A DNA stretch of 29,513 nt from a virus (taxonomy: Duplodnaviria > Caudoviricetes): IMG/VR virus record IMGVR_UViG_3300033559_000068, positions 1 through 29,513 of that record. One strand, written 5' to 3'. Below are positions 1,139 through 25,243 of the stretch, in pieces. Below the pieces are notes generated by a model, which was given only the letters and a program-made list of their open reading frames with translations, did not search any database and had not been told where the DNA came from. A program made the position numbers and the translations under genes. The stretch's first letter is position 1, and each line of letters starts with the position of its first letter.

Positions 1139-1161
1139 GGCGAAAGATTTTTCGCCCTTAC
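1139..1161. repeat. REP-like palindrome family A (GGGCGAAAGATTTTTCGCCCTTAC)
   Basis: One of 8 copies in the window. Confidence 0.8.
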
Positions 1162-1176
1162 GAATGGGGGTGTGTG

Positions 1177-1443
1177 ATGGATTTGCGGCTGGTGGTGATT
1201 GAGTTGGCTTTGTCGGCCCCGGCTGCCCGGCTGGAGGCGGCGCGGCGGGCGTTGAGGCGGGATGCGCAGGCTCCGGGGGTCACTGTGACGGTGGCGGAGG
1301 CGGCGCGGATCCTGGGGGTGAGTCGGGAGACGTGCTACCGGTATCTGGAGCGGGGCCTGCTTTCGCGGGTGCCTGCCACGAATCGGTTGCGGCGGTCGCA
1401 GGTGCTGGCTCTGGCCGGGGATGGCGGGAAGGGGGCGGAATGA
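1177..1443 (+). CDS. Excisionase-like (HTH_17/MerR-type) DNA-binding protein
   Basis: VTVAEAARILGVSRETCYRYLERGLL motif; start reassigned to ATG 1177 after the GGGGGTGTGTG module. Confidence 0.75.
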   Translation: MDLRLVVIELALSAPAARLEAARRALRRDAQAPGVTVTVAEAARILGVSRETCYRYLERGLLSRVPATNRLRRSQVLALAGDGGKGAE

Positions 1444-1718
1444 TCTCGGCGAAGGCTGCTCGGGGGTTGGTGGAGGATGTGCGGCGTTTGCGGGGGATGT
1501 TGGAGGATGCCAGGGAGGAGGCGTTGCTTATGGAGGTGATGCTTGAGGTGGCGGTGAGCAAGTACCGGGAGAAGACGGCGGCGACCCGGCGGAAGGCTTG
1601 GGTGACGCGGCGGCGTAAGGCGGCTGAACGGGCGGCTTTGCAGCCGGGGTTGGTGGGGCTGGTGGCGGAGAAGGAAGGGGCGGACACGAGGCCCGCCCGT
1701 ACTGCGGGAGGTGTGTGA
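1440..1718 (+). CDS. Hypothetical protein
   Basis: ATGA overlap with the upstream stop; in frame with ORF 1332..1718. Confidence 0.6.
   Translation: MISAKAARGLVEDVRRLRGMLEDAREEALLMEVMLEVAVSKYREKTAATRRKAWVTRRRKAAERAALQPGLVGLVAEKEGADTRPARTAGGV
1679..1702. repeat. REP-like palindrome family B
   Basis: GGCGGACACGAGGCCCGCCCGTAC, identical to 831-854. Confidence 0.75.
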
Positions 1719-2008
1719 TGGTGCGGCAGTTGGACATTGATTGGGATGTGTGTGCGCGGAAGTCTCGGGGGAATGCGGAGAGGGCCGAGGCGAACGCGAA
1801 GGCGGCTGGGGGCAAGCGGGATGCGCGGCTGGCTGTGCTGGCGTTGATCCGGCAGGCGCAGGGCGAGGGGATGACGTGCAAGGAGGTGGCCGCGCGGTTG
1901 GGCAAGTGGATGAATGCGGTGTCGGGGCGGTTCTCGGAGTTGAAGGCTCTGGGGATTGTCCGGCAGGCGGGGCGGCGCGAGGGTTGCGGGGTGTATGTGG
2001 GTGTGTAG
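1715..2008 (+). CDS. Winged-helix DNA-binding protein
   Basis: GMTCKEVAARLGKWMNAVSGRFSELKALGIV wHTH pattern. Confidence 0.7.
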   Translation: MMVRQLDIDWDVCARKSRGNAERAEANAKAAGGKRDARLAVLALIRQAQGEGMTCKEVAARLGKWMNAVSGRFSELKALGIVRQAGRREGCGVYVGV

Positions 2009-2014
2009 GGGAAG

Positions 2015-2038
2015 GGGCGAAAGATTTTTCGCCCATAC
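2015..2038. repeat. REP-like palindrome family A
   Basis: GGGCGAAAGATTTTTCGCCCATAC, intergenic. Confidence 0.8.
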
Positions 2039-2061
2039 AAAGAAGGAAAGGTGTGTGTGTG

Positions 2062-2370
2062 ATGGCGGCTAATGTGAAGTTGGGGTTCTTTGGGCGGATT
2101 AAGAAGGCGTTTGTGTTGGGGTCGCGGGAGTATCGGCGGCTGGCGGCGATCTGTGACGGGGAGATTGTGGCGATGGGCAGGCTGCGGCGGGATCTGGAGG
2201 CGCGGGAAGCGGAGCTTGTGCATTTGCGGGGCTTGCTGGATGAGGCGGACAAGCTGCTGGCGGGGGATGTGGGGGAGGTGTGCGAGTTGCTGGATGCCGG
2301 TTGTGAGTTGCGGGATGCGCGGCGGGACAAGGATGATTTAGGGAGGGCCATGGGCTATGTGTACTGTTAG
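2062..2370 (+). CDS. Hypothetical coiled-coil protein
   Basis: 3' part of ORF 1741..2370; ATG 2062 follows AAGGAAAGGTGTGTGTGTG. Confidence 0.6.
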   Translation: MAANVKLGFFGRIKKAFVLGSREYRRLAAICDGEIVAMGRLRRDLEAREAELVHLRGLLDEADKLLAGDVGEVCELLDAGCELRDARRDKDDLGRAMGYVYC

Positions 2371-2449
2371 GCGGTGGTCGGTGGGGCGGCGGGAGCGGCC
2401 GGGGATTCTGCTGCTGGGGTGGTTGCGGCGGGTGGCGGGGAGAAAGGCG

Positions 2450-2473
2450 GGGCGGGCTGCTGCCCGCCCGTAC
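2450..2473. repeat. REP-like palindrome, family B variant
   Basis: GGGCGGGC-TGCT-GCCCGCCC-GTAC followed by an RBS/start module. Confidence 0.6.
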
Positions 2474-2494
2474 AAAGGAGGAAAGGGGTGTGTG

Positions 2495-3031
2495 ATGGGG
2501 TGGTGTTATAGCTTTGATGAGGAGCGGTTCGAGGGGGAGTTTGATTCGGCGGCGGATGCGGCAGCAGAGGCGTTTGCTGTTGATGAAGATGCGTATAGGT
2601 GCTGGGTGGGCGATGTGGCGAAGCTGGAGGAGGTGATGGGGCCGCAATTTGTCGGGGATGAGGTGTGGAAGATGCTTTCGACACGGTGTTATGAGGAGGT
2701 GGGGGATTTCTACGATGGTTTCCGGCTGTCGAATGAGCAGCGGCGCGACCTGGGGATGCTGGTGCTTGCCTGGGTGGTGCGGGAAGGTGGCTTCAAGTGC
2801 TATGCCGTGAAAAATGTGCGGCGGGTGGTTTCGGCGCGTAGCGAGGCCTGCAAGCATTTGTGCAGCTTGTGCCGCAAGGACTTTGCCGTGTGTGACGCCA
2901 CGGTGAAGGTGTTCGGGGTTGATGTTGATTCGTGCGCCGTGGGTGAGGAGGCGGATGCGGTTGTGGGGTGTGATGGGTTTGTTCCCGGCTGGGACGGCGG
3001 GGCCGCTTTGGAGGCTGGGGAGGGGATTTGA
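2495..3031 (+). CDS. Hypothetical phage protein with Cys-rich C-terminal domain
   Basis: ATG 2495 in frame with ORF 2357..3031; WCYSFDEERFEGEFDS N-terminus; C-terminal Cys cluster. Confidence 0.7.
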   Translation: MGWCYSFDEERFEGEFDSAADAAAEAFAVDEDAYRCWVGDVAKLEEVMGPQFVGDEVWKMLSTRCYEEVGDFYDGFRLSNEQRRDLGMLVLAWVVREGGFKCYAVKNVRRVVSARSEACKHLCSLCRKDFAVCDATVKVFGVDVDSCAVGEEADAVVGCDGFVPGWDGGAALEAGEGI

Positions 3032-3042
3032 GCCGGGCTATT

Positions 3043-3067
3043 CCGGCGTGAACGCCGGGGGCAGGAC
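3043..3067. repeat. Palindromic repeat family C (CCGGCGTGAACGCCGGGGGCAGGAC)
   Basis: Exact copy at 6962-6986; degenerate copy at 4728-4752. Confidence 0.7.
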
Positions 3068-3079
3068 GGGGGGTGTGTG

Positions 3080-3127
3080 ATGCGGGTGATTGAGTGGGCG
3101 AACGCAGAAAGTGAGGCTTTGACATGA
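3080..3127 (+). CDS. 15-aa leader peptide reading into attC (MRVIEWANAESEALT)
   Basis: Starts at the phage GGGGGGTGTGTGATG module; its TGA overlaps ATG 3124 inside the attC site. Confidence 0.45.
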   Translation: MRVIEWANAESEALT

Positions 3128-3163
3128 GTGCAGCGAATGTCAATAGCCACTGCCTTGTTCGGT
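3097..3163 (-). mobile_element. attC site of cassette 4, with a 3-nt deletion in one arm
   Basis: Minus strand: ACCGAAC-AAGGC-AGT[G]GCT[A]TTGACAT...ATGTCAA-AGCCTC-ACT-TTCTGC-GTTCGCC. Confidence 0.75.
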
Positions 3164-3522
3164 TTTCTGATGACTGGCACAGGCTGGCGTTGTTGAAGAT
3201 GCGACAACTCCAAGACGATGGAATGACGTGTGCCGAGATCGTGCTGGAGCATCCTGTCAAAGGCACGGCGCACATTGATCGGTGGGGAAAGGTGACGTGG
3301 GACGATAAACAGGGGCATGAGGTAAAAAAAATTGAAGCGTATCAGCAGAGAGTGATTGAAGAGAAACAGGTGCTCGACGAGAAGATCGAGAAGCTGTCGG
3401 CGTTCATCGGCACCGAACGGTACTGTGCTTTGCCAGAAGCGGAGCAGGTGCGCATGGATAGGCAGTTGATCGCAATGGGCGAATACTCGGCCATCTTGGG
3501 TGAACGAATCGCCGCGTTTTGA
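3124..3522 (+). CDS. Cassette protein; C-terminal half resembles the crAss001_48-like small phage family
   Basis: YQQRVIEEKQVLDEKIEKLSAF...MGEYSAILGERIAAF recognised from memory; start codon lies inside the attC. Confidence 0.7.
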   Translation: MSAANVNSHCLVRFSDDWHRLALLKMRQLQDDGMTCAEIVLEHPVKGTAHIDRWGKVTWDDKQGHEVKKIEAYQQRVIEEKQVLDEKIEKLSAFIGTERYCALPEAEQVRMDRQLIAMGEYSAILGERIAAF

Positions 3523-3543
3523 ACAACGGGCCGGAAAGGAAAA

Positions 3544-3879
3544 ATGAGTGAGTTATTTAAACTGAAAAAAGAGCAGCGGCGGGCATTTCTGCGATTGAAA
3601 CGAGCACACGCGGATTGCCTGAACCTTGGTATTGAGTTCTACAACAACTATGGGTATGTCGGTGCTGTCGATCCGAAAAAATTCGAGAGGGATTTTTACA
3701 ACGACAAGCTTAGTCCGGGCGCAATTGAAGACGCGGGCCAAAACAGCGAGAACGAGTTTCGTCTAGAGTGCAGCGAATGGTGCGACGATATGCATTATTT
3801 TCATCCCAAACCCAACGCCCCCGCTGACCTTCCGGCGGTAGCCGATACGGCCCGGCGGGATGTTGGAGGTGCTCAATGA
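3544..3879 (+). CDS. Hypothetical cassette protein; C-terminus encoded by attC
   Basis: RBS AAAGGA; ends PNAPADLPAVADTARRDVGGAQ, the translation of attC 3810-3868. Confidence 0.75.
   Translation: MSELFKLKKEQRRAFLRLKRAHADCLNLGIEFYNNYGYVGAVDPKKFERDFYNDKLSPGAIEDAGQNSENEFRLECSEWCDDMHYFHPKPNAPADLPAVADTARRDVGGAQ
3810..3868 (-). mobile_element. attC site of cassette 3 (59 bp)
   Basis: Minus strand: CTCCAAC-ATCCC-GCC[G]GGCCGT[A]TCGGC-TACC-GCCGG-AAGGTC-AGC-GGGGGC-GTTGGGT; homologous to 4446-4504. Confidence 0.8.
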
Positions 3880-4085
3880 TTTTGGGGAGACAGGCCCGAG
3901 AGCCCGGAGTATCCGGGACGACCTACTGGATAGGCCGCGAAAGCGGTCGAAGGTGTGATGGCCCGAATGAGGGGCCGGACTGCTGCGCCTTGTGCGTGGT
4001 GCCAGAAGCGGACTCCGTGCAAATCGGATCATCGGGAAGTCTCCCCTCCAACACGGAGCGTCATGCTCCGAGCGGAGCGAGGTAG
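3876..4085 (+). CDS. Small hypothetical cassette protein
   Basis: ATGA coupling to the upstream gene; TAG stop inside attC 4046-4105. Confidence 0.5.
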   Translation: MILGRQAREPGVSGTTYWIGRESGRRCDGPNEGPDCCALCVVPEADSVQIGSSGSLPSNTERHAPSGAR

Positions 4086-4105
4086 CATGGACGCTTTTGT
4101 TGTGC
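4046..4105 (-). mobile_element. attC site of cassette 2 (60 bp), canonical
   Basis: Minus strand: GCACAAC-AAAAG-CGT[C]CATGCT[A]CC-TCGCTCCGCTC-GG-AGCATG-ACG-CTCCGT-GTTGGAG; extrahelical C and A at the canonical positions. Confidence 0.88.
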
Positions 4106-4716
4106 TTCGGATTCAGGACGCGGACGGGCGGGGGCCGTGGAAACCCGGTTTCTCGCGCCAGTGGGTTGAGGACAGGCCCGACCACGAGGACCTGCCGCCG
4201 TGGTTCGTGGAGTTCGGCCGCGTGGACAAGTTGGCGCTGGTGGGAGAGCACGTCGGAAGCGGATGCCGGACACTGGAACAACTGCGCCGGTGGTTCAGCC
4301 CGACCGAGTACGCGACGCTGCGCCGGTTCGGGTATCGGGCCGTGCGGATGGCGGTGGGGCGACTGCTGGCCGAGTCGGACAGGCAATGCTTCTTCGGGCG
4401 GGCGCGACCGCTGCGCGAAGACGTTGAGCCGGTGGAACTGTATGAGCACAACGCCCCTGCTGACCTTCCGGCGGTAGCCGGTAAGGTCCGGCGTGATGTT
4501 GGGCAGATCAACCCTGACGAACGCATTACCGTCGAGGGCGTGGAGATTTTGCGTTACACGGAGGGTTGCGATGGCACGATATTCGACCATGCAGCAGCAG
4601 GCGGACCGCCGACGCGATGTATCAGATGCGACCGATGGACATCTTTATCGCCGTATTGCCCACGATGCATTGCTGTTGATCTGAAACTGCCCAACAGTTT
4701 TATTGGACAGATTTGA
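4087..4716 (+). CDS. Two-cassette fusion protein (hypothetical domain, attC-encoded linker, CxxC..CxxC domain)
   Basis: ATG 4087 inside attC after GGAGCGAGG; reads through attC 4446-4504 (HNAPADLPAVAGKVRRDVGQ); CIRC...CPRC near the C-terminus. Confidence 0.7.
   Translation: MDAFVVLRIQDADGRGPWKPGFSRQWVEDRPDHEDLPPWFVEFGRVDKLALVGEHVGSGCRTLEQLRRWFSPTEYATLRRFGYRAVRMAVGRLLAESDRQCFFGRARPLREDVEPVELYEHNAPADLPAVAGKVRRDVGQINPDERITVEGVEILRYTEGCDGTIFDHAAAGGPPTRCIRCDRWTSLSPYCPRCIAVDLKLPNSFIGQI
4446..4504 (-). mobile_element. attC site of cassette 1 (59 bp)
   Basis: Minus strand: GCCCAAC-ATCAC-GCC[G]GACCTT[A]CCGGC-TACC-GCCGG-AAGGTC-AGC-AGGGGC-GTTGTGC; same geometry as attC(aadA7). Confidence 0.88.
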
Positions 4717-4727
4717 TCCATCTAATA
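4689..4727 (-). mobile_element. attI-like primary recombination site
   Basis: Minus strand ...CAAATCTGTCCAATAAAACTG|TTGGGC; AT-rich, no attC hairpin, at the head of the array; resembles the attI1 end CCCTAAAACAAAG|TT. Confidence 0.5.
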
Positions 4728-4744
4728 CCGCTGTGAACAGCGGC

Positions 4745-4778
4745 GGCAGGACGAGGTAAAGGGGGTGTGTGATGGCGG
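4745..4778 (+). repeat. 34-bp direct repeat, copy 1
   Basis: GGCAGGACGAGGTAAAGGGGGTGTGTGATGGCGG, identical at 5302-5335. Confidence 0.85.
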
Positions 4779-4849
4779 AGGGGCGGCAATGAAGGGCTTG
4801 TCTCAATAGGTGAGATAATTGAACGGGGTGTTTTGTGAGGGCAGCCAGG

Positions 4850-5001
4850 AGAAATCGCAAGCTGGTGAGAAAACGGGTGCCAAAAGAGGCCGCGCTGGAA
4901 ACGGCAGTAATCCCGACAGGTAAGCGGAGAAATCCGATGACTCGGCACCAATGCGGGGGTAGCGTCCCGCCCCTCACGTTTTCTACACCGCTTTGTTCGC
5001 A
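4850..5001 (-). mobile_element. Probable decayed long attC site
   Basis: Minus-strand start GCGAAC-AAAGC-GGTGTAGAAAACG matches + strand AAGCTGGTGAGAAAACG at about 4859-4875; the distal R box is disrupted. Confidence 0.4.
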
Positions 5002-5041
5002 GGAGCGTAAACATGAATGAGCAACAGTTAAATGATTATTT

Positions 5042-5329
5042 ATGACGGTATTAACGAATATCGAAGTGATGCCAATGGGGGATGGTCATGTTGTGCGGCT
5101 TATTGCTGAAAAGTCGGGCAAGAAATTGCGCATAGATATACCGATACCGTTTGGAATGATTTCAGACAAGTACCAGGTATTAGCGAAATTCAGGGATCTA
5201 TATGCGATGCATAACGCCAGCGTAAGCATTCCCCGGTCGACGAGCGGGGCTGGAGAAGCGCAAGGCGGCAATGCAGGAGCAAATGGCGTTGTTGTGAGGC
5301 GGGCAGGACGAGGTAAAGGGGGTGTGTGA
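5042..5329 (+). CDS. Hypothetical protein (AT-richer, cassette-like)
   Basis: 95-aa ORF; C-terminus HNASVSIPRS reads through an attC-like half-site at 5209. Confidence 0.6.
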   Translation: MTVLTNIEVMPMGDGHVVRLIAEKSGKKLRIDIPIPFGMISDKYQVLAKFRDLYAMHNASVSIPRSTSGAGEAQGGNAGANGVVVRRAGRGKGGV

Positions 5330-5335
5330 TGGCGG
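5302..5335 (+). repeat. 34-bp direct repeat, copy 2
   Basis: Identical to 4745-4778. Confidence 0.85.
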
Positions 5336-5538
5336 GGGAGTGTGTGGCGGATGCTAGGGGGCAGGTGTTGCGGTGTTTGGTTTGTGGCGAGGAGGTGCCT
5401 ATGCCGATGGGGATGGTGCGCTGGTTCGCGGGGGTGTGCCGGGCGTTTGAGTTGGCGCATAGGGGGTGTGACGGGCGCAAGGGGAAGACGGGGTTTGCGA
5501 AGTGCGCGGGGGGGGAGGGGAAGGGGGCGGAGTTATGA
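5326..5538 (+). CDS. Small Zn-finger-like hypothetical protein
   Basis: CLVCG...HRGC; start module present. Confidence 0.6.
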   Translation: MMAGECVADARGQVLRCLVCGEEVPMPMGMVRWFAGVCRAFELAHRGCDGRKGKTGFAKCAGGEGKGAEL

Positions 5539-5759
5539 GGCAGGTTGATTTCGAGCATGATGTTGGCGACGAGGTGATGATGGTGTTTGCCAGTGAGGTC
5601 ACGGGGCATGTGACGGCTCTTAAACTGGAGGCGTGCGGTCGGCAGTATCGCGTTGCATGGTGGCAGGACGGATGCAGGCGTGAGGATTGGCTGCTGGCGT
5701 GGGAGATCAAGGGGGCGAAGCCTGGTGCCAGTGTTGATTCAGTTGTGCTGGGCGAATGA
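5535..5759 (+). CDS. Hypothetical small protein (possibly SH3-like)
   Basis: ATGA coupling; FEHDVGDEV...YRVAWW; stop codon lies inside a family A repeat. Confidence 0.6.
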   Translation: MRQVDFEHDVGDEVMMVFASEVTGHVTALKLEACGRQYRVAWWQDGCRREDWLLAWEIKGAKPGASVDSVVLGE

Positions 5760-5773
5760 TTTTTCGCCCTTAC
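5750..5773. repeat. REP-like palindrome family A
   Basis: GGGCGAATGATTTTTCGCCCTTAC. Confidence 0.75.
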
Positions 5774-5786
5774 TACAAGGGGGTGT

Positions 5787-6905
5787 GTGATGGGGTTTGA
5801 TTCGGGGGCGGTTTCGTTTGTGATGGCGGGTTGTGAGATGGATGTGCGGGGGTTCCTGGCGAAGGCGGCTGGCGAGGTGGTGCCTGATATGGCGGCGGTT
5901 GCCTGTATGCCGGTGTTCGGCTGGGCCGGTCCTCGGCATTTGATGGACCGGGATGTGGGCGAGGGTAATTGTGTGGTGGATGGGCGGTTTGTGTGGATGA
6001 ACCGGGTGGCGGCGCAACGGGCGTTCCCGGCTTCGCGGATGCGGGCTGAAATCGCGCTTGAGGAGGCGGCGGAGATGGCGGCGCGGGGGGTGCGTTTCTT
6101 GCGCAAGGGGGAGCGTAAGGAGATCCGGGACGAGGTGGAGCTTCGTTTGCTGAAGGATGCGCCGGTGGGCTTGAAGGGGATTTCGTTTGTGTGTTGTGTG
6201 AAGGAGCGGGTTCTTTTTACGGATGCGACGAGCGATAACCGTTTTGACCGGCTGTATGGCGCGATGGTGCAGCGGGCTCGTGATGCTGACCTGGATTCGG
6301 TTCCCCCGGTGCAGATGGGGGCTTGGATGACGCCGGATATTGCGGCGCGGCGGATGGGGGTGCAGGTGGTGGATTTGAAACCGTTGGTGTTTTCGTTCCA
6401 CGCGATGCAGCCGGCGGAGATGTTTTCGTTTGCTCTGGGGCGGGAGTTCCTGACCTGGCTTTTGATGGTGGCGGAGGTGGGCTCTACGTTCGACGGCTGG
6501 GGGGTGTTCCTGGAGGGGCCGCTGGTGTTCGCTGGTGGCGTTGATGCGGTGGAGGTGACGGTGGATGCGGATTCGCCGACGGGGGCGGACGAGGCGCAGA
6601 GTGCGCTTGAGCATGGGCGGCTTTTGCGGTCGGCGCGGGTGCATCTGGCGCATGGCGAGGATGTTTTCTCGTTTGTGGTGGATGCGGATAACTGGGTGTT
6701 CCGGTGGACGGCGTTGAAGGTTGAGGACTCTGGGTTTGATGCGGGGGAACGGCTGGCGGCGCGGGTGGAGAAGCTGCTGTTGTTGCGGGAGGGGTGGCTG
6801 CTGCTGTTCAAGGTTTTTCTGGAGTTGCGGCGGGATCGGGCGGAGGAGTTGGCGAAGGCTGCGCAGGAGTGGTGCCTGGAGCGGGTGATGGCGAGGAAGG
6901 TGTAG
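5787..6905 (+). CDS. rdgC: RdgC-like recombination-associated protein
   Basis: 372 aa; FGW...ERKEIRDEVELRLL and LGREFLTWL...EGPLVF segments resemble RdgC-like proteins; typical early-region position. Confidence 0.65.
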   Translation: MMGFDSGAVSFVMAGCEMDVRGFLAKAAGEVVPDMAAVACMPVFGWAGPRHLMDRDVGEGNCVVDGRFVWMNRVAAQRAFPASRMRAEIALEEAAEMAARGVRFLRKGERKEIRDEVELRLLKDAPVGLKGISFVCCVKERVLFTDATSDNRFDRLYGAMVQRARDADLDSVPPVQMGAWMTPDIAARRMGVQVVDLKPLVFSFHAMQPAEMFSFALGREFLTWLLMVAEVGSTFDGWGVFLEGPLVFAGGVDAVEVTVDADSPTGADEAQSALEHGRLLRSARVHLAHGEDVFSFVVDADNWVFRWTALKVEDSGFDAGERLAARVEKLLLLREGWLLLFKVFLELRRDRAEELAKAAQEWCLERVMARKV

Positions 6906-6960
6906 AAGGCGTTTGGCGGCAAGGATGTGACGGTGACGGTGGTGAAGGGGTGAGGGGGTG

Positions 6961-6986
6961 CCCGGCGTGAACGCCGGGGGCAGGAC
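6961..6986. repeat. Palindromic repeat family C
   Basis: CCCGGCGTGAACGCCGGGGGCAGGAC. Confidence 0.7.
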
Positions 6987-7174
6987 TTGGGAGTGATTTT
7001 TTCTGTGGTGGCCGATGTCGAATGGCATTCGTCTTAAACCGACTGGCCGGGTGGTCAGTGCTGCTACAGAGAATTAAATCCGGGGGCGTGTGCTTCCGGT
7101 CGGTGTGGCGTGGCGGGCTGGATTTTCAACGACCCTCACCCGCTGCGCCATGCCGTGTGTTTCTGGAGGGGGGA

Positions 7175-7198
7175 GGGCGAAAGATTTTTCGCCCTTAC
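7175..7198. repeat. REP-like palindrome family A
   Basis: Exact consensus, immediately before the start module. Confidence 0.8.
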
Positions 7199-7210
7199 TG
7201 GGGGTGTGTG

Positions 7211-20358: not shown

Positions 20359-21978
20359 ATGAAGATGTTGCGGGTTCTGGCGGTTGGTGCGGTTGCGGTG
20401 GCCTTGCTGGTGTTGGTGCTGGCCGGATCGGTCTTCGGGCAGTCGGGTTATACGGTGCTCGGCAAGAGTGTGATGGTGGGCACCAATGGCGTGGTGAACC
20501 TGCCCGCCGGGTTCTGGACGAATAACCTTGCCCCCAGTGAGGTCGTGGTTTCGCAGGATGCACAGGGCCGCCTTGTGCTTGGGCTTGACAATGCCGTACT
20601 GCGTTCGGGGACCGTGGAGGCTTGGACGTTCGCGGGGGGCTCCTATGCACAGGCGGGAGTGGTGGCAACCTCCCCCGTGCTTACCGGCGGCGTGGCGCGG
20701 TGCGAGGCGACGGTTCAGGGTGCCTTTGCGGGGGCTTGGGAGATGTCTACCGGCACCGGCGATGTGTGGACGGCGTTCGAGCCGACCACGAATGCAGCGG
20801 CAGTGCGGCTGCTGTTAACGAATGACCGTCCGCTTTTTCTTATCGTAGAAGAAGGGGCTCTGGATACGACGGTATCCGGCGTGGCCGTGTTCTCGTGGGT
20901 GCGACCGCATGTGGTGGGCGGTGTGGATGACCTGTCCGGGAAGTCGCTGCGGGTGGATGATCCGGTGGACGGGCGCGACGCGGTGAACCTGCAAACGCTG
21001 AATGCGGCGATGGATGCGGCGGCCCAGTCGCTGGGTAGCTCGCTGGTTGCGCTGACGAATGATGTGACCTTCAAGGAAAAGGTGTTTATCGGCTCGGTGT
21101 GGTCGCTGGATTCTGGGACAAACCTTGATCTTGTGGTTTCGTCGGGCGGGCTTCCGGTGTTGTGGTTCTCGCAGGGCGCGGGTTCGATGCTGCTGCATAT
21201 CGCCTCGCTTTCCGTGGCCGGGGGACAGGTGACGGCGATGGTCTCGACCAATGGCGTGTCCTCAAGACCGATGTTGCAGTATTCCGCCCCGCCCTCTGCG
21301 GCGACAGGCTGGAAGTGGATCTGGACGCCACTTGCCGCGGTTGATGAGTCGTGGCCCTCTGTGGAGACTAACGCCTACCGGATTGCGGCGACACTGCCTG
21401 ATCCCACGGCGCGTAGCGGCTTCTTCCGGGCCGTGCAGGAAAGCGCAGAGACGACGATGACGCTCGCCGGGCACTTTGTTCCGGCGGTTACTAATGCGTT
21501 CGACCTGGGGACGGCGGAGAAGCCGTGGCGTTCGCTTTACCTGGATGGGAATACGCTGCATATCGGTGGCTTCCCTATAAGCGTGGATGCCAGCAGCGGC
21601 TCGCTGACCTTTGGCGGGGTGGTGGTGGCGAGTACGAACCAGCCGACTAACTCGCTGCTGACGCCCGATGCGTTGTCGGCCATGTTCTCGAACTCGATTG
21701 CCTCGACGGTGGATCTATTTGCGCAGACGCCGAGCGTACCCGCCTACCAGTATGTGACGATCCCGACAAACGGCCTTGACCCGAATACCAATGTGCTGGT
21801 GGCGATTCCCGAGCCGACCTACTGGACGACGAATGCCACCGGGGAGTATGTGCAGACGAATGTGTATGTGCCCCTGCCTCCGATTGCCTCGCTGCCTACC
21901 AATTTCCCTCCGCTTGTGCCGCTTTCCAATGTTGTTTTTAACCTGACTGAAACGAATGGATGGGGTGATGATGAATAA
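20359..21978 (+). CDS. Tail-fibre-like protein with signal-peptide-like N-terminus
   Basis: MKMLR plus hydrophobic stretch; DDPVDGRDAVNL and FVPAVTNAFDLGTAEKPWRSLY tail-fibre-type motifs; many TN dipeptides. Confidence 0.6.
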   Translation: MKMLRVLAVGAVAVALLVLVLAGSVFGQSGYTVLGKSVMVGTNGVVNLPAGFWTNNLAPSEVVVSQDAQGRLVLGLDNAVLRSGTVEAWTFAGGSYAQAGVVATSPVLTGGVARCEATVQGAFAGAWEMSTGTGDVWTAFEPTTNAAAVRLLLTNDRPLFLIVEEGALDTTVSGVAVFSWVRPHVVGGVDDLSGKSLRVDDPVDGRDAVNLQTLNAAMDAAAQSLGSSLVALTNDVTFKEKVFIGSVWSLDSGTNLDLVVSSGGLPVLWFSQGAGSMLLHIASLSVAGGQVTAMVSTNGVSSRPMLQYSAPPSAATGWKWIWTPLAAVDESWPSVETNAYRIAATLPDPTARSGFFRAVQESAETTMTLAGHFVPAVTNAFDLGTAEKPWRSLYLDGNTLHIGGFPISVDASSGSLTFGGVVVASTNQPTNSLLTPDALSAMFSNSIASTVDLFAQTPSVPAYQYVTIPTNGLDPNTNVLVAIPEPTYWTTNATGEYVQTNVYVPLPPIASLPTNFPPLVPLSNVVFNLTETNGWGDDE

Positions 21979-24900
21979 GATTGTATGTAATGCCGTGGTT
22001 GCTGCCTGCGTGATGCTGCTGGGTGGGCTCCTTTGTCTTGTGGTGAACGCTGCGCAACAGCAACTTCCAGCAGAGCCTGATATTGCTTGGTCGGACTTTA
22101 TTGCTGCGGTAGGGTCTAGAGATCCAATGAATGCGAACCATGTCCTTGAATACTATACCTGGGCGATTAGACAAGATAATGCGTGGTTTGAGCAGTGTGT
22201 CGCGATCAGCGTGGATAACCGCTTTGATGCGTGGAGTACCAACGGCGTATCTGCACAAACGAACATGACAGAGTTTGTCGCGCAATACGAGGCATTCAAA
22301 CTGGAAGTGAATGCCAGCATTCGCCAAACCGACAGCAATGTTTCTGTTAACAACGGCAGAGTACAGGTATTGCGGTATGATGTGAATCAACTCCAGAACG
22401 ATGTAACAGACACCCGAAACTCCGTGCAGCAACTTATGACGGAAACCATGGACAGCCAGAACGCTTTGATGCAGATGCTTGAGCAGAGAGTCAACGAACT
22501 GGCCGCCAGGGATATCAGCATCGGTACGGATGTGTGTAGGATGATTGACCAGTTGCGGAGGCGGCATACTTCGGCTTTTAATTTCGTGAATGCGCGGATT
22601 GATGAGCTGACCAATTCGCCGCTTTCGAGCGTGGTTGAAGCGGGCACGAATGCGACGTTCCTTTCGGTGGCATCGGCGGTGGATCAGATTGTTTCCACGA
22701 ATGGGATGACGGTTTCCACGAATGCCGGGCAGACGCGGTACACGGTGACGCTGGATCATACCGCGTTGCCGTATCCGGTGGTCTCGGGCACGGGTTCGCT
22801 GGTGAAGGTGGTGGCGACGCCGGGCGAGGAGGATACGCAGCCGACGACGTATGAGGTGGGGCTGGATCCTTCCGTTCTGGAGATGAATGCGGAATTGCCG
22901 CTGATCGCGGTGCCCGCCTCGACGAATGCGGCGGATGCATGGAAGTTCTCGCTTTCGCTGGATACGAACTGGCTGGCGAGTGTGCCCACGAATGTGACCA
23001 GTCCCGTGCAGGTGGCCGGTACGGCCGGTGCAACTGTGACGCCAAGCGAGATCACGGTGAACGGCTCGACTGGGACGCTTTACACGGTGAGTGTCAGCAC
23101 GGGCTGGCTGGGGGGATGGATCGGGACGAACATTGTTGATGATGTTGGTGTTGAAAGCGTGAGTGTTGACGGGACGAACCCGATTTATGTGGTTGACGGG
23201 GGCGGTGCAGACAACCCGACGTTTATGGTGGGGTTCAATACGAACTGGCTAGCGGCGTATCTTTCGGGGGGTTATCTGCTTTCGGCGGTTGACTCCATGG
23301 ATCTTGGTGTTCTGCCTGATGGGACCGCCGTTTTGAACAATCCCGCCGGAATTAGCCCGGCGCTGGTTATTCCGAGCGTTATCAACGGGGTTGCTGTGAC
23401 GGAAATCCCTGATGGCTTTCTGGAGTTGAACCAAACGATCACCTCTGTTTCTGGTGCGAACATCATAAACATTAGTGCAAGTGCCTTTTCGGGCTGCGAA
23501 AACCTGGTCTCTGTTTCATTCCCGAACGCGCGGACTGTTGGAGCCGACGCTTTTCGCAGATGTTTCAATCTGGCGACGGTGGACCTCCCGGAGGCTACTG
23601 TTATAGGGGCATCTTGTTTCTTCGACAACGCTGTGTTAAGTTCCGTTAATATTCCCGCCGTAAAAACATTGGGGTCATATGCGTTTAGTTCATGCAGCAG
23701 TCTTAAGTCTATCGCACTTCCATCCGTTACATCAATCGGTGAAGGTGCGTTCTTAAATTGCTGGATTCTGGATGAAGTCCTCTGGGGGGCGACCAATGCC
23801 CCGGCGGAGCAATCGAGCACGTTCGCCGGAGGCTGGCCCGGGGGGTCCAACTATGTTACGAATCCGACGGCCACCGGATGGGGTACTACCTTTGGCGGTA
23901 AGCCCGTGGTGCGCTTACCGTATGCTTTACAAGCACCGTTGACGGTGCAGGGCACGAATGTGATGGACCGGTTCGCCGGTTTAGCGGTGTCTTCCGTGGT
24001 GGCGACGCAGGTGTGGGACCGGGCACAGTATCCGCTGGCGCTTACGAATGCGGCGGCGTTCGCGACGGCGGAGCAGGGTGCGCTTGCCGACACGGCGTTG
24101 CAGGCCGAGACCGACACCCTGCAGACCATAACCGACCGGGGCGCGACCACGACCAACACCATCACGGCAGGGGCGTATTATGTTGGATCAACCAACATAG
24201 GGGCTTACGCAACGACGGCTTATGGCTGGGGGAATCATGCGACCAATGGGTATGCGCTGACCAGTGATAACTCTGTCACCTGGCCAGCGGCGGTCAATGT
24301 GGCGGGGCCGACGTGGACGATTGACTACACGAACCTGATGCAGCGGGTGAATTTCACGGGCACCATCACGAACATGGTCTTCCAGACGTTGACCAATGCA
24401 CAAAAGCGCTTAGTGGAAGTGTGGATCAGTAATGCTAAATCGAACACTTACTCGCCCGATGGCCTGTGGGTGCGTGAACCGTCATGGACGAAACAGAATG
24501 TTCATGCGGTGATCTCGTGGTCGCTGGGCGGCGTCTCGGCAAGCATGGATAAGGAGATGTCATTGGATGGCCCCACGCAGGCAGGGTACATCAACGTGAC
24601 GTCTGACGCGACGGGCCTTCTGTGGAGTACCAACGGCATGAATGGCATGTATGCAGACAATACCTACACCCTGATAACCTGGTTTAACGCAACGGAATTC
24701 GCTAGCGGAAACGTGCTTATGGAGATGAGACGCGTCGGTGCCGGGGCCGACGGGTATGACTTTTATACCTATGGAACATCCGGTAGTAATCTGCTTCTTT
24801 GCTGGAGACCATTTGGCGACGCTTTAGGTGTTGCTGGGACTTTCACAAATCTGCTAAATGGAAGCTGGCACATGATTGCGTGCGTATTTAACGACGCTTC

Positions 24901-25243
24901 TAACTACCGCCTATATAACGATGGAAAATTAGCACACACCCTTGTGGCGTCTTTAAACATAGCCTCTCTCCCGCCTAGGCAAGTGTATATTACAAGGCGG
25001 CCTGAGCCTGATGGCAAGACGGCTACAGCCAAACAGGGGCCGTCCTTCTTCTATTCCCGCGCAATGTCAGCGTCTGAGCTTGCAGCGATACACTCGCAAG
25101 GACCAACGTATATCCACCCTGCTGATGCTGACCTTATGGCGGCGTACTACTTATCGGAAGGCAGCGGGACAAACACTGTCAATAGCGTCAATGGTCTGTC
25201 GTCTGGGCAGATTTTAGGTGGGGCTACATGGGGATCGCTTTAA
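21968..25243 (+). CDS. Large mosaic adhesin/tail-fibre-like protein: signal peptide, coiled coil, BspA-type LRR (LRR_5), C-terminal LamG/ConA-like domain
   Basis: IxxxAFxxCxxLxxVxxP repeats at about 23340-23790; ATAEQGALADTALQ; WHMIACVF...LYNDGK and FYSRAMSASEL LamG-like motifs. Confidence 0.75.
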   Translation: MMNKIVCNAVVAACVMLLGGLLCLVVNAAQQQLPAEPDIAWSDFIAAVGSRDPMNANHVLEYYTWAIRQDNAWFEQCVAISVDNRFDAWSTNGVSAQTNMTEFVAQYEAFKLEVNASIRQTDSNVSVNNGRVQVLRYDVNQLQNDVTDTRNSVQQLMTETMDSQNALMQMLEQRVNELAARDISIGTDVCRMIDQLRRRHTSAFNFVNARIDELTNSPLSSVVEAGTNATFLSVASAVDQIVSTNGMTVSTNAGQTRYTVTLDHTALPYPVVSGTGSLVKVVATPGEEDTQPTTYEVGLDPSVLEMNAELPLIAVPASTNAADAWKFSLSLDTNWLASVPTNVTSPVQVAGTAGATVTPSEITVNGSTGTLYTVSVSTGWLGGWIGTNIVDDVGVESVSVDGTNPIYVVDGGGADNPTFMVGFNTNWLAAYLSGGYLLSAVDSMDLGVLPDGTAVLNNPAGISPALVIPSVINGVAVTEIPDGFLELNQTITSVSGANIINISASAFSGCENLVSVSFPNARTVGADAFRRCFNLATVDLPEATVIGASCFFDNAVLSSVNIPAVKTLGSYAFSSCSSLKSIALPSVTSIGEGAFLNCWILDEVLWGATNAPAEQSSTFAGGWPGGSNYVTNPTATGWGTTFGGKPVVRLPYALQAPLTVQGTNVMDRFAGLAVSSVVATQVWDRAQYPLALTNAAAFATAEQGALADTALQAETDTLQTITDRGATTTNTITAGAYYVGSTNIGAYATTAYGWGNHATNGYALTSDNSVTWPAAVNVAGPTWTIDYTNLMQRVNFTGTITNMVFQTLTNAQKRLVEVWISNAKSNTYSPDGLWVREPSWTKQNVHAVISWSLGGVSASMDKEMSLDGPTQAGYINVTSDATGLLWSTNGMNGMYADNTYTLITWFNATEFASGNVLMEMRRVGAGADGYDFYTYGTSGSNLLLCWRPFGDALGVAGTFTNLLNGSWHMIACVFNDASNYRLYNDGKLAHTLVASLNIASLPPRQVYITRRPEPDGKTATAKQGPSFFYSRAMSASELAAIHSQGPTYIHPADADLMAAYYLSEGSGTNTVNSVNGLSSGQILGGATWGSL

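Follow-up and report, generated by a model that had tools for sequence, protein, structure and literature searches.

A probable integron-type cassette array of reversed polarity, with a likely attI site, in the early operon of a tailed phage

Within the early operon of the virus record IMGVR_UViG_3300033559_000068 (Caudoviricetes) lies a cluster of attC recombination sites. The record comprises 29,513 bases with an estimated completeness of 43%, and the whole of this stretch is referred to here as the window. It is probable, in our view, that the cluster is a four-cassette array of integron type ending in a likely attI site, that its identifiable genes lie on the attC sites' bottom strand, and that it was assembled by the integron integrase IntI, most likely supplied by the host. 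Gene order in the window runs from plus-strand early genes to terminase, portal and major head genes. An original prediction, made from the sequence alone, had described here a phage-borne cassette array with attC sites inverted relative to the genes, no integrase of its own, and a host or helper IntI shuffling a phage gene pool in trans.

Four attC sites on the minus strand

The attC sites, lettered A to D, all have their top strand on the minus strand:

attC A, 3097–3163, minus strand: outermost site, one arm 3 nucleotides short; crossover at 3103; 16.3 bits
attC B, 3810–3868, minus strand: crossover at 3816; 91% identical to attC D; 22.3 bits
attC C, 4046–4105, minus strand: crossover at 4052; contains the stop of open reading frame (ORF) 2 (4083–4085) and the ATG of ORF 3 (4087); 31.6 bits
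attC D, 4446–4504, minus strand: crossover at 4452; of a family found also in other phages and in host-class chromosomes; 30.9 bits

Core triplets R''/R', arms L''/L' and two extrahelical bases at fixed spacing are present in three full sites and in one with a 3-nucleotide deletion. Read on the bottom strand, the first extrahelical base is G in site C and C in sites B and D, and the second is T in all three. A scan of the 29,513 bases for this geometry (AAC-5-3-(base)-6-(A)-stem-6-3-6-GTT) returned 3 sites only, at 3814–3864, 4050–4101 and 4450–4500, with the top strand minus in each. Dinucleotide shuffles of 3001–4800 (n = 500) gave 0 sites in 486 cases and 1 site in 14, and shuffles of the whole window (n = 40) gave a mean of 0.28 sites and a maximum of 2.

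Bit scores are those of a covariance model trained on 15 of 25 attC sites lying beside bacterial intI genes, namely those of 52–57 bases. At E ≤ 5 the model has 5 matches in the window, of which the four array sites are the best, all on the minus strand; the fifth (8.2 bits) lies elsewhere. Serving as a stand-in for IntegronFinder, for which minus-strand hits had been predicted, the model is not fully independent of the scan, its training sites having been chosen by the same geometry rule. Scan and model agree on the three sites predicted at 3810, 4046 and 4446 and on their polarity. The fourth, predicted at 3097 with one short arm, is matched by the model, and the full arm is present in lake contigs of the same site family (with a loose end after 3148). 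The 3-nucleotide loss is in frame with ORF 1a, which starts inside attC A.

Bacterial controls place this polarity relative to that of ordinary integrons. All 25 attC sites, found in 9 of 20 stretches upstream of bacterial intI genes, point away from intI, and the longest ORF lies on the attC top strand in 19 of 19 intervals of 5 bacterial arrays. G:T counts on both strands were too few to inform polarity. With at least two attC sites on the same strand within 4 kb and no adjacent intI, the array is a cluster of attC sites lacking integron-integrases (CALIN) as defined in PMC4889954.

Paired cassette ends

The crossovers delimit four cassettes, given here without strand, with end pairing counted beyond the fixed triplet:

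cassette 1, 3103–3815: 713 base pairs, two ORFs; ends pair at 5 of 6 positions
cassette 2, 3816–4051: 236 base pairs; ends pair at 5 of 6
cassette 3, 4052–4451: 400 base pairs; ends pair at 5 of 6
cassette 4, 4452–4694: 243 base pairs, adjoining the end site; ends pair at 6 of 6

The complementary ends that the original prediction reported for each intervening segment thus pair at 21 of 24 free positions (binomial P = 2e-10), against 1–4 of 6 in 12 non-cognate end pairings and 1–3 of 6 between the two ends within each site. Since cognate ends pair, and non-cognate and within-site ends do so less, the sites are chimeras of neighbouring cassettes, which is the outcome expected of circle insertion at G|TT (PMC5027507, PMC4792948).

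Cargo genes on the attC bottom strand

The plus-strand frames of the array are:

leader ORF, 3080–3127, plus strand: 15 codons, crossing out of the backbone and into attC A, with a stop codon over the ATG at 3124 and a putative role in coupling
ORF 1a, 3124–3522, plus strand: 132 amino acids, beginning inside attC A; C-terminal part crAss001_48 / phrog_774
ORF 1b, 3544–3879, plus strand: 111 amino acids, reading through attC B; its stop overlaps the next ATG (3876)
ORF 2 (candidate), 3876–4085, plus strand: 69 amino acids, the frame of cassette 2; its stop ends one base before the ATG at 4087
ORF 3, 4087–4716, plus strand: Y00F-like domain in the first 120 amino acids; runs through attC D and cassette 4, with its stop inside the end site

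The three genes supported by homology (ORF 1a, ORF 1b and ORF 3) are all on the plus strand, which is the attC bottom strand, and so depart from the canonical integron, whose genes lie on the attC top strand and are read from the cassette promoter Pc. Cargo of phage families, as originally proposed, is found in two of them. ORF 1a matches PF21825 (E = 4e-18) and phrog_774 (E = 4e-17) and has 14 homologues at 56–87%. ORF 3 has relatives at 43–75% in 8 viral loci, a match to phrog_1106 (E = 0.001) and an atlas match to PF26820, the T4 Y00F family (score 0.95, with recognition short of the range taken as reliable). At 6 distinct loci that were inspected, the related gene is not bounded by attC sites and stops a few codons later. 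In an annotated phage collection neither the ORF 3 protein nor the array DNA had a match. The single homologue of ORF 1b (67%) has an attC-free tail that differs from the point where the window protein enters attC B.

Profile searches gave no family match for cassette 2 on either strand, and for the cysteine-rich plus-strand frame of cassette 4 no homologue was found and the atlas leads are weak; neither cassette therefore has a homologue to fix its coding strand. Stops and starts that overlap or nearly touch chain the plus frames across the sites at 3124 (site A), 3876 and 4087 (site C).

A likely attI site at the right end

At the right end of the array is a site of a different kind, and the array as a whole is flanked by two backbone repeats:

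site E, 4693–4727, minus strand: read on the plus strand, AAC, 5 nucleotides, a 6-base-pair box, 15 nucleotides and an inverted 6-base-pair box; crossover at 4695
left backbone repeat, 3036–3082, plus strand: family D2; a short hairpin and a recurring ribosome-binding motif ending in ATG
right backbone repeat, 4722–4781, plus strand: families D2 and D13; overlaps the last box of site E

The original prediction placed a boundary at 4695 but missed the attI-like site there. From its sequence, site E is likely to be an attI, because such sites recur after inverted attC sites, because it aligns with sites upstream of intI, and because of the spacing of its counterpart in phage record G004. Inverted attC sites end in an E-type site in L001/L011, a phage record of transposable type to which the shared D-type attC led, in phage L012, in the short phage-like contig L017 and in L029, a prophage-like contig of a Verrucomicrobiota-phylum genome (G342). 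Read by eye, three non-phage-looking contigs (L014, L016 and L020) have the E-type site before genes on the normal (minus) strand. When the end site is aligned with those that lie upstream of intI in 8 bacterial loci, and with that of G004, AAC, a 4-base spacer and a TATT-type box are common features; the site lying between array and IntI in G004 has the same 4-6-15-6 spacing. A Shewanella attI quoted in PMC9892861 has these features too and shares the layout of its last 13 bases with site E.

Site E thus has the position, polarity and motif of an attI at an array head, but its spacer, at 5 nucleotides, is one base longer than in all 16 other aligned sites. A second E-like copy, with the same 5-nucleotide spacer and a different first cassette, occurs in 4 mat runs, so that a site with the long spacer is not necessarily dead. 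No exact E-type (6-15-6) site beside an intact intI was found in 30 bacterial intI loci. The right backbone repeat is present without site E in another phage record.

Matches to the E pattern in L010, L013 and L015, which are AT-rich and array-free, were rejected as likely chance, as were three 2-mismatch matches (4 of 401 genomes gave 5 matches, the control gave 8). L001 (3750–4880) and L029 (1019–1535) are transposable-type phages with a common small cysteine-rich backbone gene. One of them has its array ahead of this gene and the other behind it, which puts attI and array at differing places in the backbone. Two truncated attC halves are also present in L001.

Exchange of cassettes and sites

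Parts of the array are found elsewhere with other neighbours. Site D has other flanks in four mat runs. In a lake run of another study, a match to ORF 1b (3540–3816, 20 differences) diverges at the crossover at 3816, and the same run contains part of ORF 3 (5 differences), a copy of site C between different flanks and an A-type site whose arm is complete; a lake contig carries the interior of cassette 2 (3898–4036) with 1 difference. One cargo gene and three site types therefore occur elsewhere with other flanks, the change falling at the AAC triplet, and parts are exchanged at this triplet across phages. Turnover of the array in the window is probably low today, because site A has lost 3 nucleotides and site E has the longer spacer. 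Scans for a degenerate B/D attC pattern and for ORF 1b in viral sequences gave no matches, and the one locus matching the C-type pattern (L105) is not an attC.

Assembly of the array and the source of the integrase

We propose that IntI inserted circular cassettes singly at site E, which would make cassette 4, on the right, the newest and cassette 1, on the left, the oldest. The phage early transcript would read through the array towards attI, so that no integron Pc would be needed, and the attC sites would supply start codons and stops for the cassette genes. IntI itself would come from the host and act in trans.

A host source is supported by IntI being common in a class of potential hosts and by D-type attC sites standing beside host genes. 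In the Verrucomicrobiota class of G342, IntI exceeds the cut-off in 110 of 201 genomes, and 3 of 301 genomes carry D-type attC sites that have the same 14-nucleotide loop and adjoin host metabolic genes, in normal polarity (in one of them, G521, the site is cut by a contig end). Phage records L001 and L103 have this site type inverted, as does the prophage-like L029 (1 of 301 host-class genomes). The predicted lack of an integrase holds for the sequenced part: no tyrosine recombinase (PF00589) was found in the 43%-complete contig, and tblastn of IntI against it gave nothing below E 0.9. Upstream of the TIGR02249 match, many IntI proteins of G342's class (L075, L080, L083 and L086) bear a long N-terminal extension, with open frames of 420–580 amino acids against a model of 315 positions.

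Several observations weigh against this account. The incompleteness of the contig leaves room for a phage-own intI outside the sequenced part. The loci on which the attI motif was counted (9 forward and 1 reverse matches) are those from which it had been drawn by eye, and L020's intI stub, next to its E-type site, is likewise a by-eye call, with no tblastn match. ORF length alone favours the plus strand in only 2 of 4 cassettes; the original statement that all credible ORFs run opposite to attC stands for the three homology-supported genes and does not extend to cassettes 2 and 4. Precise cassette loss at the crossovers, predicted for relatives, did not appear: single-cassette skips at 3103, 3816, 4052 and 4452 were not found in any of 8 runs, among them X1, from which the window may come; the runs were compared as assembled contigs, which lose rare variants, and the near-identical contigs L018 and L019 hold the same four cassettes. 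Contigs in 3 runs (X3, X5 and X6) skip the whole array, from 3069 to 4825, at a 7-base microhomology and not at a crossover (contig sides of 30, 51 and 21 bases). Two sites, attC A and site E, look degenerate. The draft genome of G342, in which the closest prophage-like array lies, shows no IntI above the cut-off, and the link to this host class is drawn from short sites in common and not from a host prediction. Inverted layouts in G004, with its own IntI, and in provirus G503, with an intI stub, offer a route without action in trans. Of the original prediction, the cassette anatomy, the inverted polarity, the phage cargo and a plausible host source of IntI are supported; action of the enzyme in trans and present shuffling of this array are conjectural, and are placed in doubt by these two phages and by the missing single-cassette skips.

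Joints at 2572–5747, 3067–5750 and 4753–5244 were not counted as cassette loss, as repeats are involved, nor was a joint at 3835–4478, where two similar sites have 9 other letters between them. The missing backbone coverage in lake run X8 was likewise given no weight. In array-skipping contigs, the 51-base piece 4825–4875 then leads into other sequence that starts like an attC bottom strand.

The alternative that survives best keeps the cassette anatomy and assigns the enzyme to the phage. The array would be the remnant of a complete phage integron, its intI deleted or lying in the unsequenced part, and would now move or be lost as a block between the backbone repeats. Such an integron has a precedent in G004, where a complete IntI (456.9 bits, cut-off 265) directly follows an inverted five-cassette array with ends pairing at 6, 5, 4, 6 and 6 of 6 positions; G503 has an attI near-identical to that of G004, other cassettes (6, 6 and 5 of 6) and an intI stub of 61 amino acids. 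In the window the backbone repeat follows site E at once, where intI would be, and the degenerate site A, the long spacer, the unchanged array in L018 and L019 and the whole-array skips all fit a relic. In L011, L012, L017 and L029, by contrast, ordinary phage genes come straight after the E-type site and there is no trace of intI, and since each of these has different cassettes, several independent clean losses of intI would be needed. The second E-like copy, with its own first cassette, weakens the case for a dead site, and near-identical cargo in the lake sample points to recent exchange. We regard this explanation as unlikely, though still a serious contender to a host-supplied IntI.

Record G004 (G004:C1:2428–3369; L021/L033), which also has a serine recombinase, contains a complete mirror-image integron: an IntI that runs in the direction of the phage genes, an attI and five inverted cassettes. 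The intI of G503 (L091) is cut after about 57 codons by another sequence.

Very improbable is an origin in which a host cassette block was captured backwards from a chromosomal integron, or a rare top-strand insertion took place, with the plus-strand ORFs as mere shadows. Host cassettes do use the D-type attC family, cassettes 2 and 3 contain minus-strand ORFs of comparable length, and top-strand recombination is known at low frequency (PMC5027507), but either event would keep the genes in line with their own attC top strand. The genes with homologues are instead on the bottom strand and belong to phage families that are attC-free in other phages, which contradicts this origin for cassettes 1 and 3; moreover, 0 of 11 minus-strand ORFs match PHROGs, and a search of 301 host-class genomes for the cassette 3 protein gave 1 match, weak and broken.

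That the hairpins are terminators, RNA-processing signals or phage repeats like repetitive extragenic palindromic (REP) elements, unrelated to recombination, is scarcely credible: the phage does have many other short intergenic hairpin repeats, and ORFs read through the sites, but the ends pair across cassettes and not within sites, the extrahelical positions are fixed, the attC model matches, the flanks change at the AAC triplet, Rfam has no match at the array, and a promoter and terminator scan of 2900–5400 stayed at chance level with no terminator-like match at the attC sites.

Repeats and modules of the backbone

The strong G skew of the backbone falls between about 3100 and 5300, a drop that marks this region as acquired. 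A second low-skew module, at 4774–5301, lies between two 37-base-pair repeats and includes a 95-amino-acid ORF (5042–5329). Within it is a degenerate attC-like stretch (site F, 5213–5293), excluded from the array as the attC covariance model gave no match; a lake contig matches part of the module with a 2-base gap.

Preceding many genes, from 1139 to 7207 of the window and onward, are three families of short hairpin repeats and one ribosome-binding motif (hairpin repeats at, for example, 831, 1139, 1679, 2016, 3036, 4722, 5751, 6962 and 7176), which we take to resemble REP-type repeats. These repeats also occur in phage record L090, which has only backbone repeats in common with the window. 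Contig joints often fall on them, which suggests a second, repeat-bounded route of gene-module swapping. In the virion region, a protein of 1095 amino acids (21956–25243) carries BspA-type leucine-rich repeats (PF13306).

Relation to known systems

Seventeen phage CALINs have been reported (Qi et al. 2023, PMC9892861), and IntI1 recombined 5 of 6 tested phage attC sites with attI1 (PMC9892861). Like the window, the clusters of that study (in Tetrasphaera phage TJE1, PH101, P12002L and ctTUS972, the last being MW202573) are integrase-free and carry small cargo genes. Genes in the TJE1 cluster, whose sequence was checked here, are in line with the attC top strand, unlike those of the window. The available text of PMC9892861 reports no gene–site inversion and no attI in the virulent-phage clusters, both of which the window has. 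In MW202573 itself (L107, 2069–3750), the genes are on the plus strand and the model matches the minus strand at 2069, 2619 and 3399, with one weak plus-strand match; the inverted layout thus appears to be present already in this published record, without comment in the available text of that article.

Bacterial CALINs (Cury et al. 2016, PMC4889954) resemble the window in being attC clusters without a neighbouring intI, and about half of them are in genomes that encode IntI elsewhere (PMC4889954); the window differs in keeping an attI-like site, in lying in a phage early operon and in its reversed gene polarity. Sedentary chromosomal integrons, represented by G342's class, have the attC geometry, one site family with the same loop, the attI-proximal motif and the paired ends of the window. 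In the window, unlike in these integrons, bottom-strand genes are read towards attI by the phage operon, no intI stands beside attI, the cargo is of phage families, and ORFs start inside and run through attC sites. Among chromosomal cassettes, many carry genes for defence against phages (bioRxiv 10.1101/2024.07.02.601686).

The literature searched, which covered few subscription journals, yielded no account of phage arrays that are inverted and have an attI of their own. Phage attC clusters themselves have been published; the one in the window combines a likely attI with gene polarity that is reversed.

Two cassette pools and the making of cassettes

Integrons are treated as bacterial devices. 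If the window holds an array on the phage side that is reversed in polarity and has a docking site of its own, the same recombinase would also diversify phages, and polarity would keep the two gene pools apart: owing to the reversal, host cassettes that entered the phage attI would run antisense to the phage transcript, as would phage cassettes in a host integron relative to Pc. We tentatively extend this to a mirror-image system, in which phages with their own attI would use host IntI and host attC families and turn native genes into reversed-polarity cassettes, so that phage and host pools might share an enzyme and stay silent in each other's arrays. In the making of a cassette, the 3' tail of a native gene would be replaced at the AAC triplet, with start and stop signals built into the attC.

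How cassettes arise is an open question in the field. Genes of the array exist elsewhere as plain phage genes with different tails, which bears on the origin of cassettes; if the mirror-image interpretation is correct, such paired cassette and non-cassette forms of one gene would offer a direct handle on how cassettes are made.

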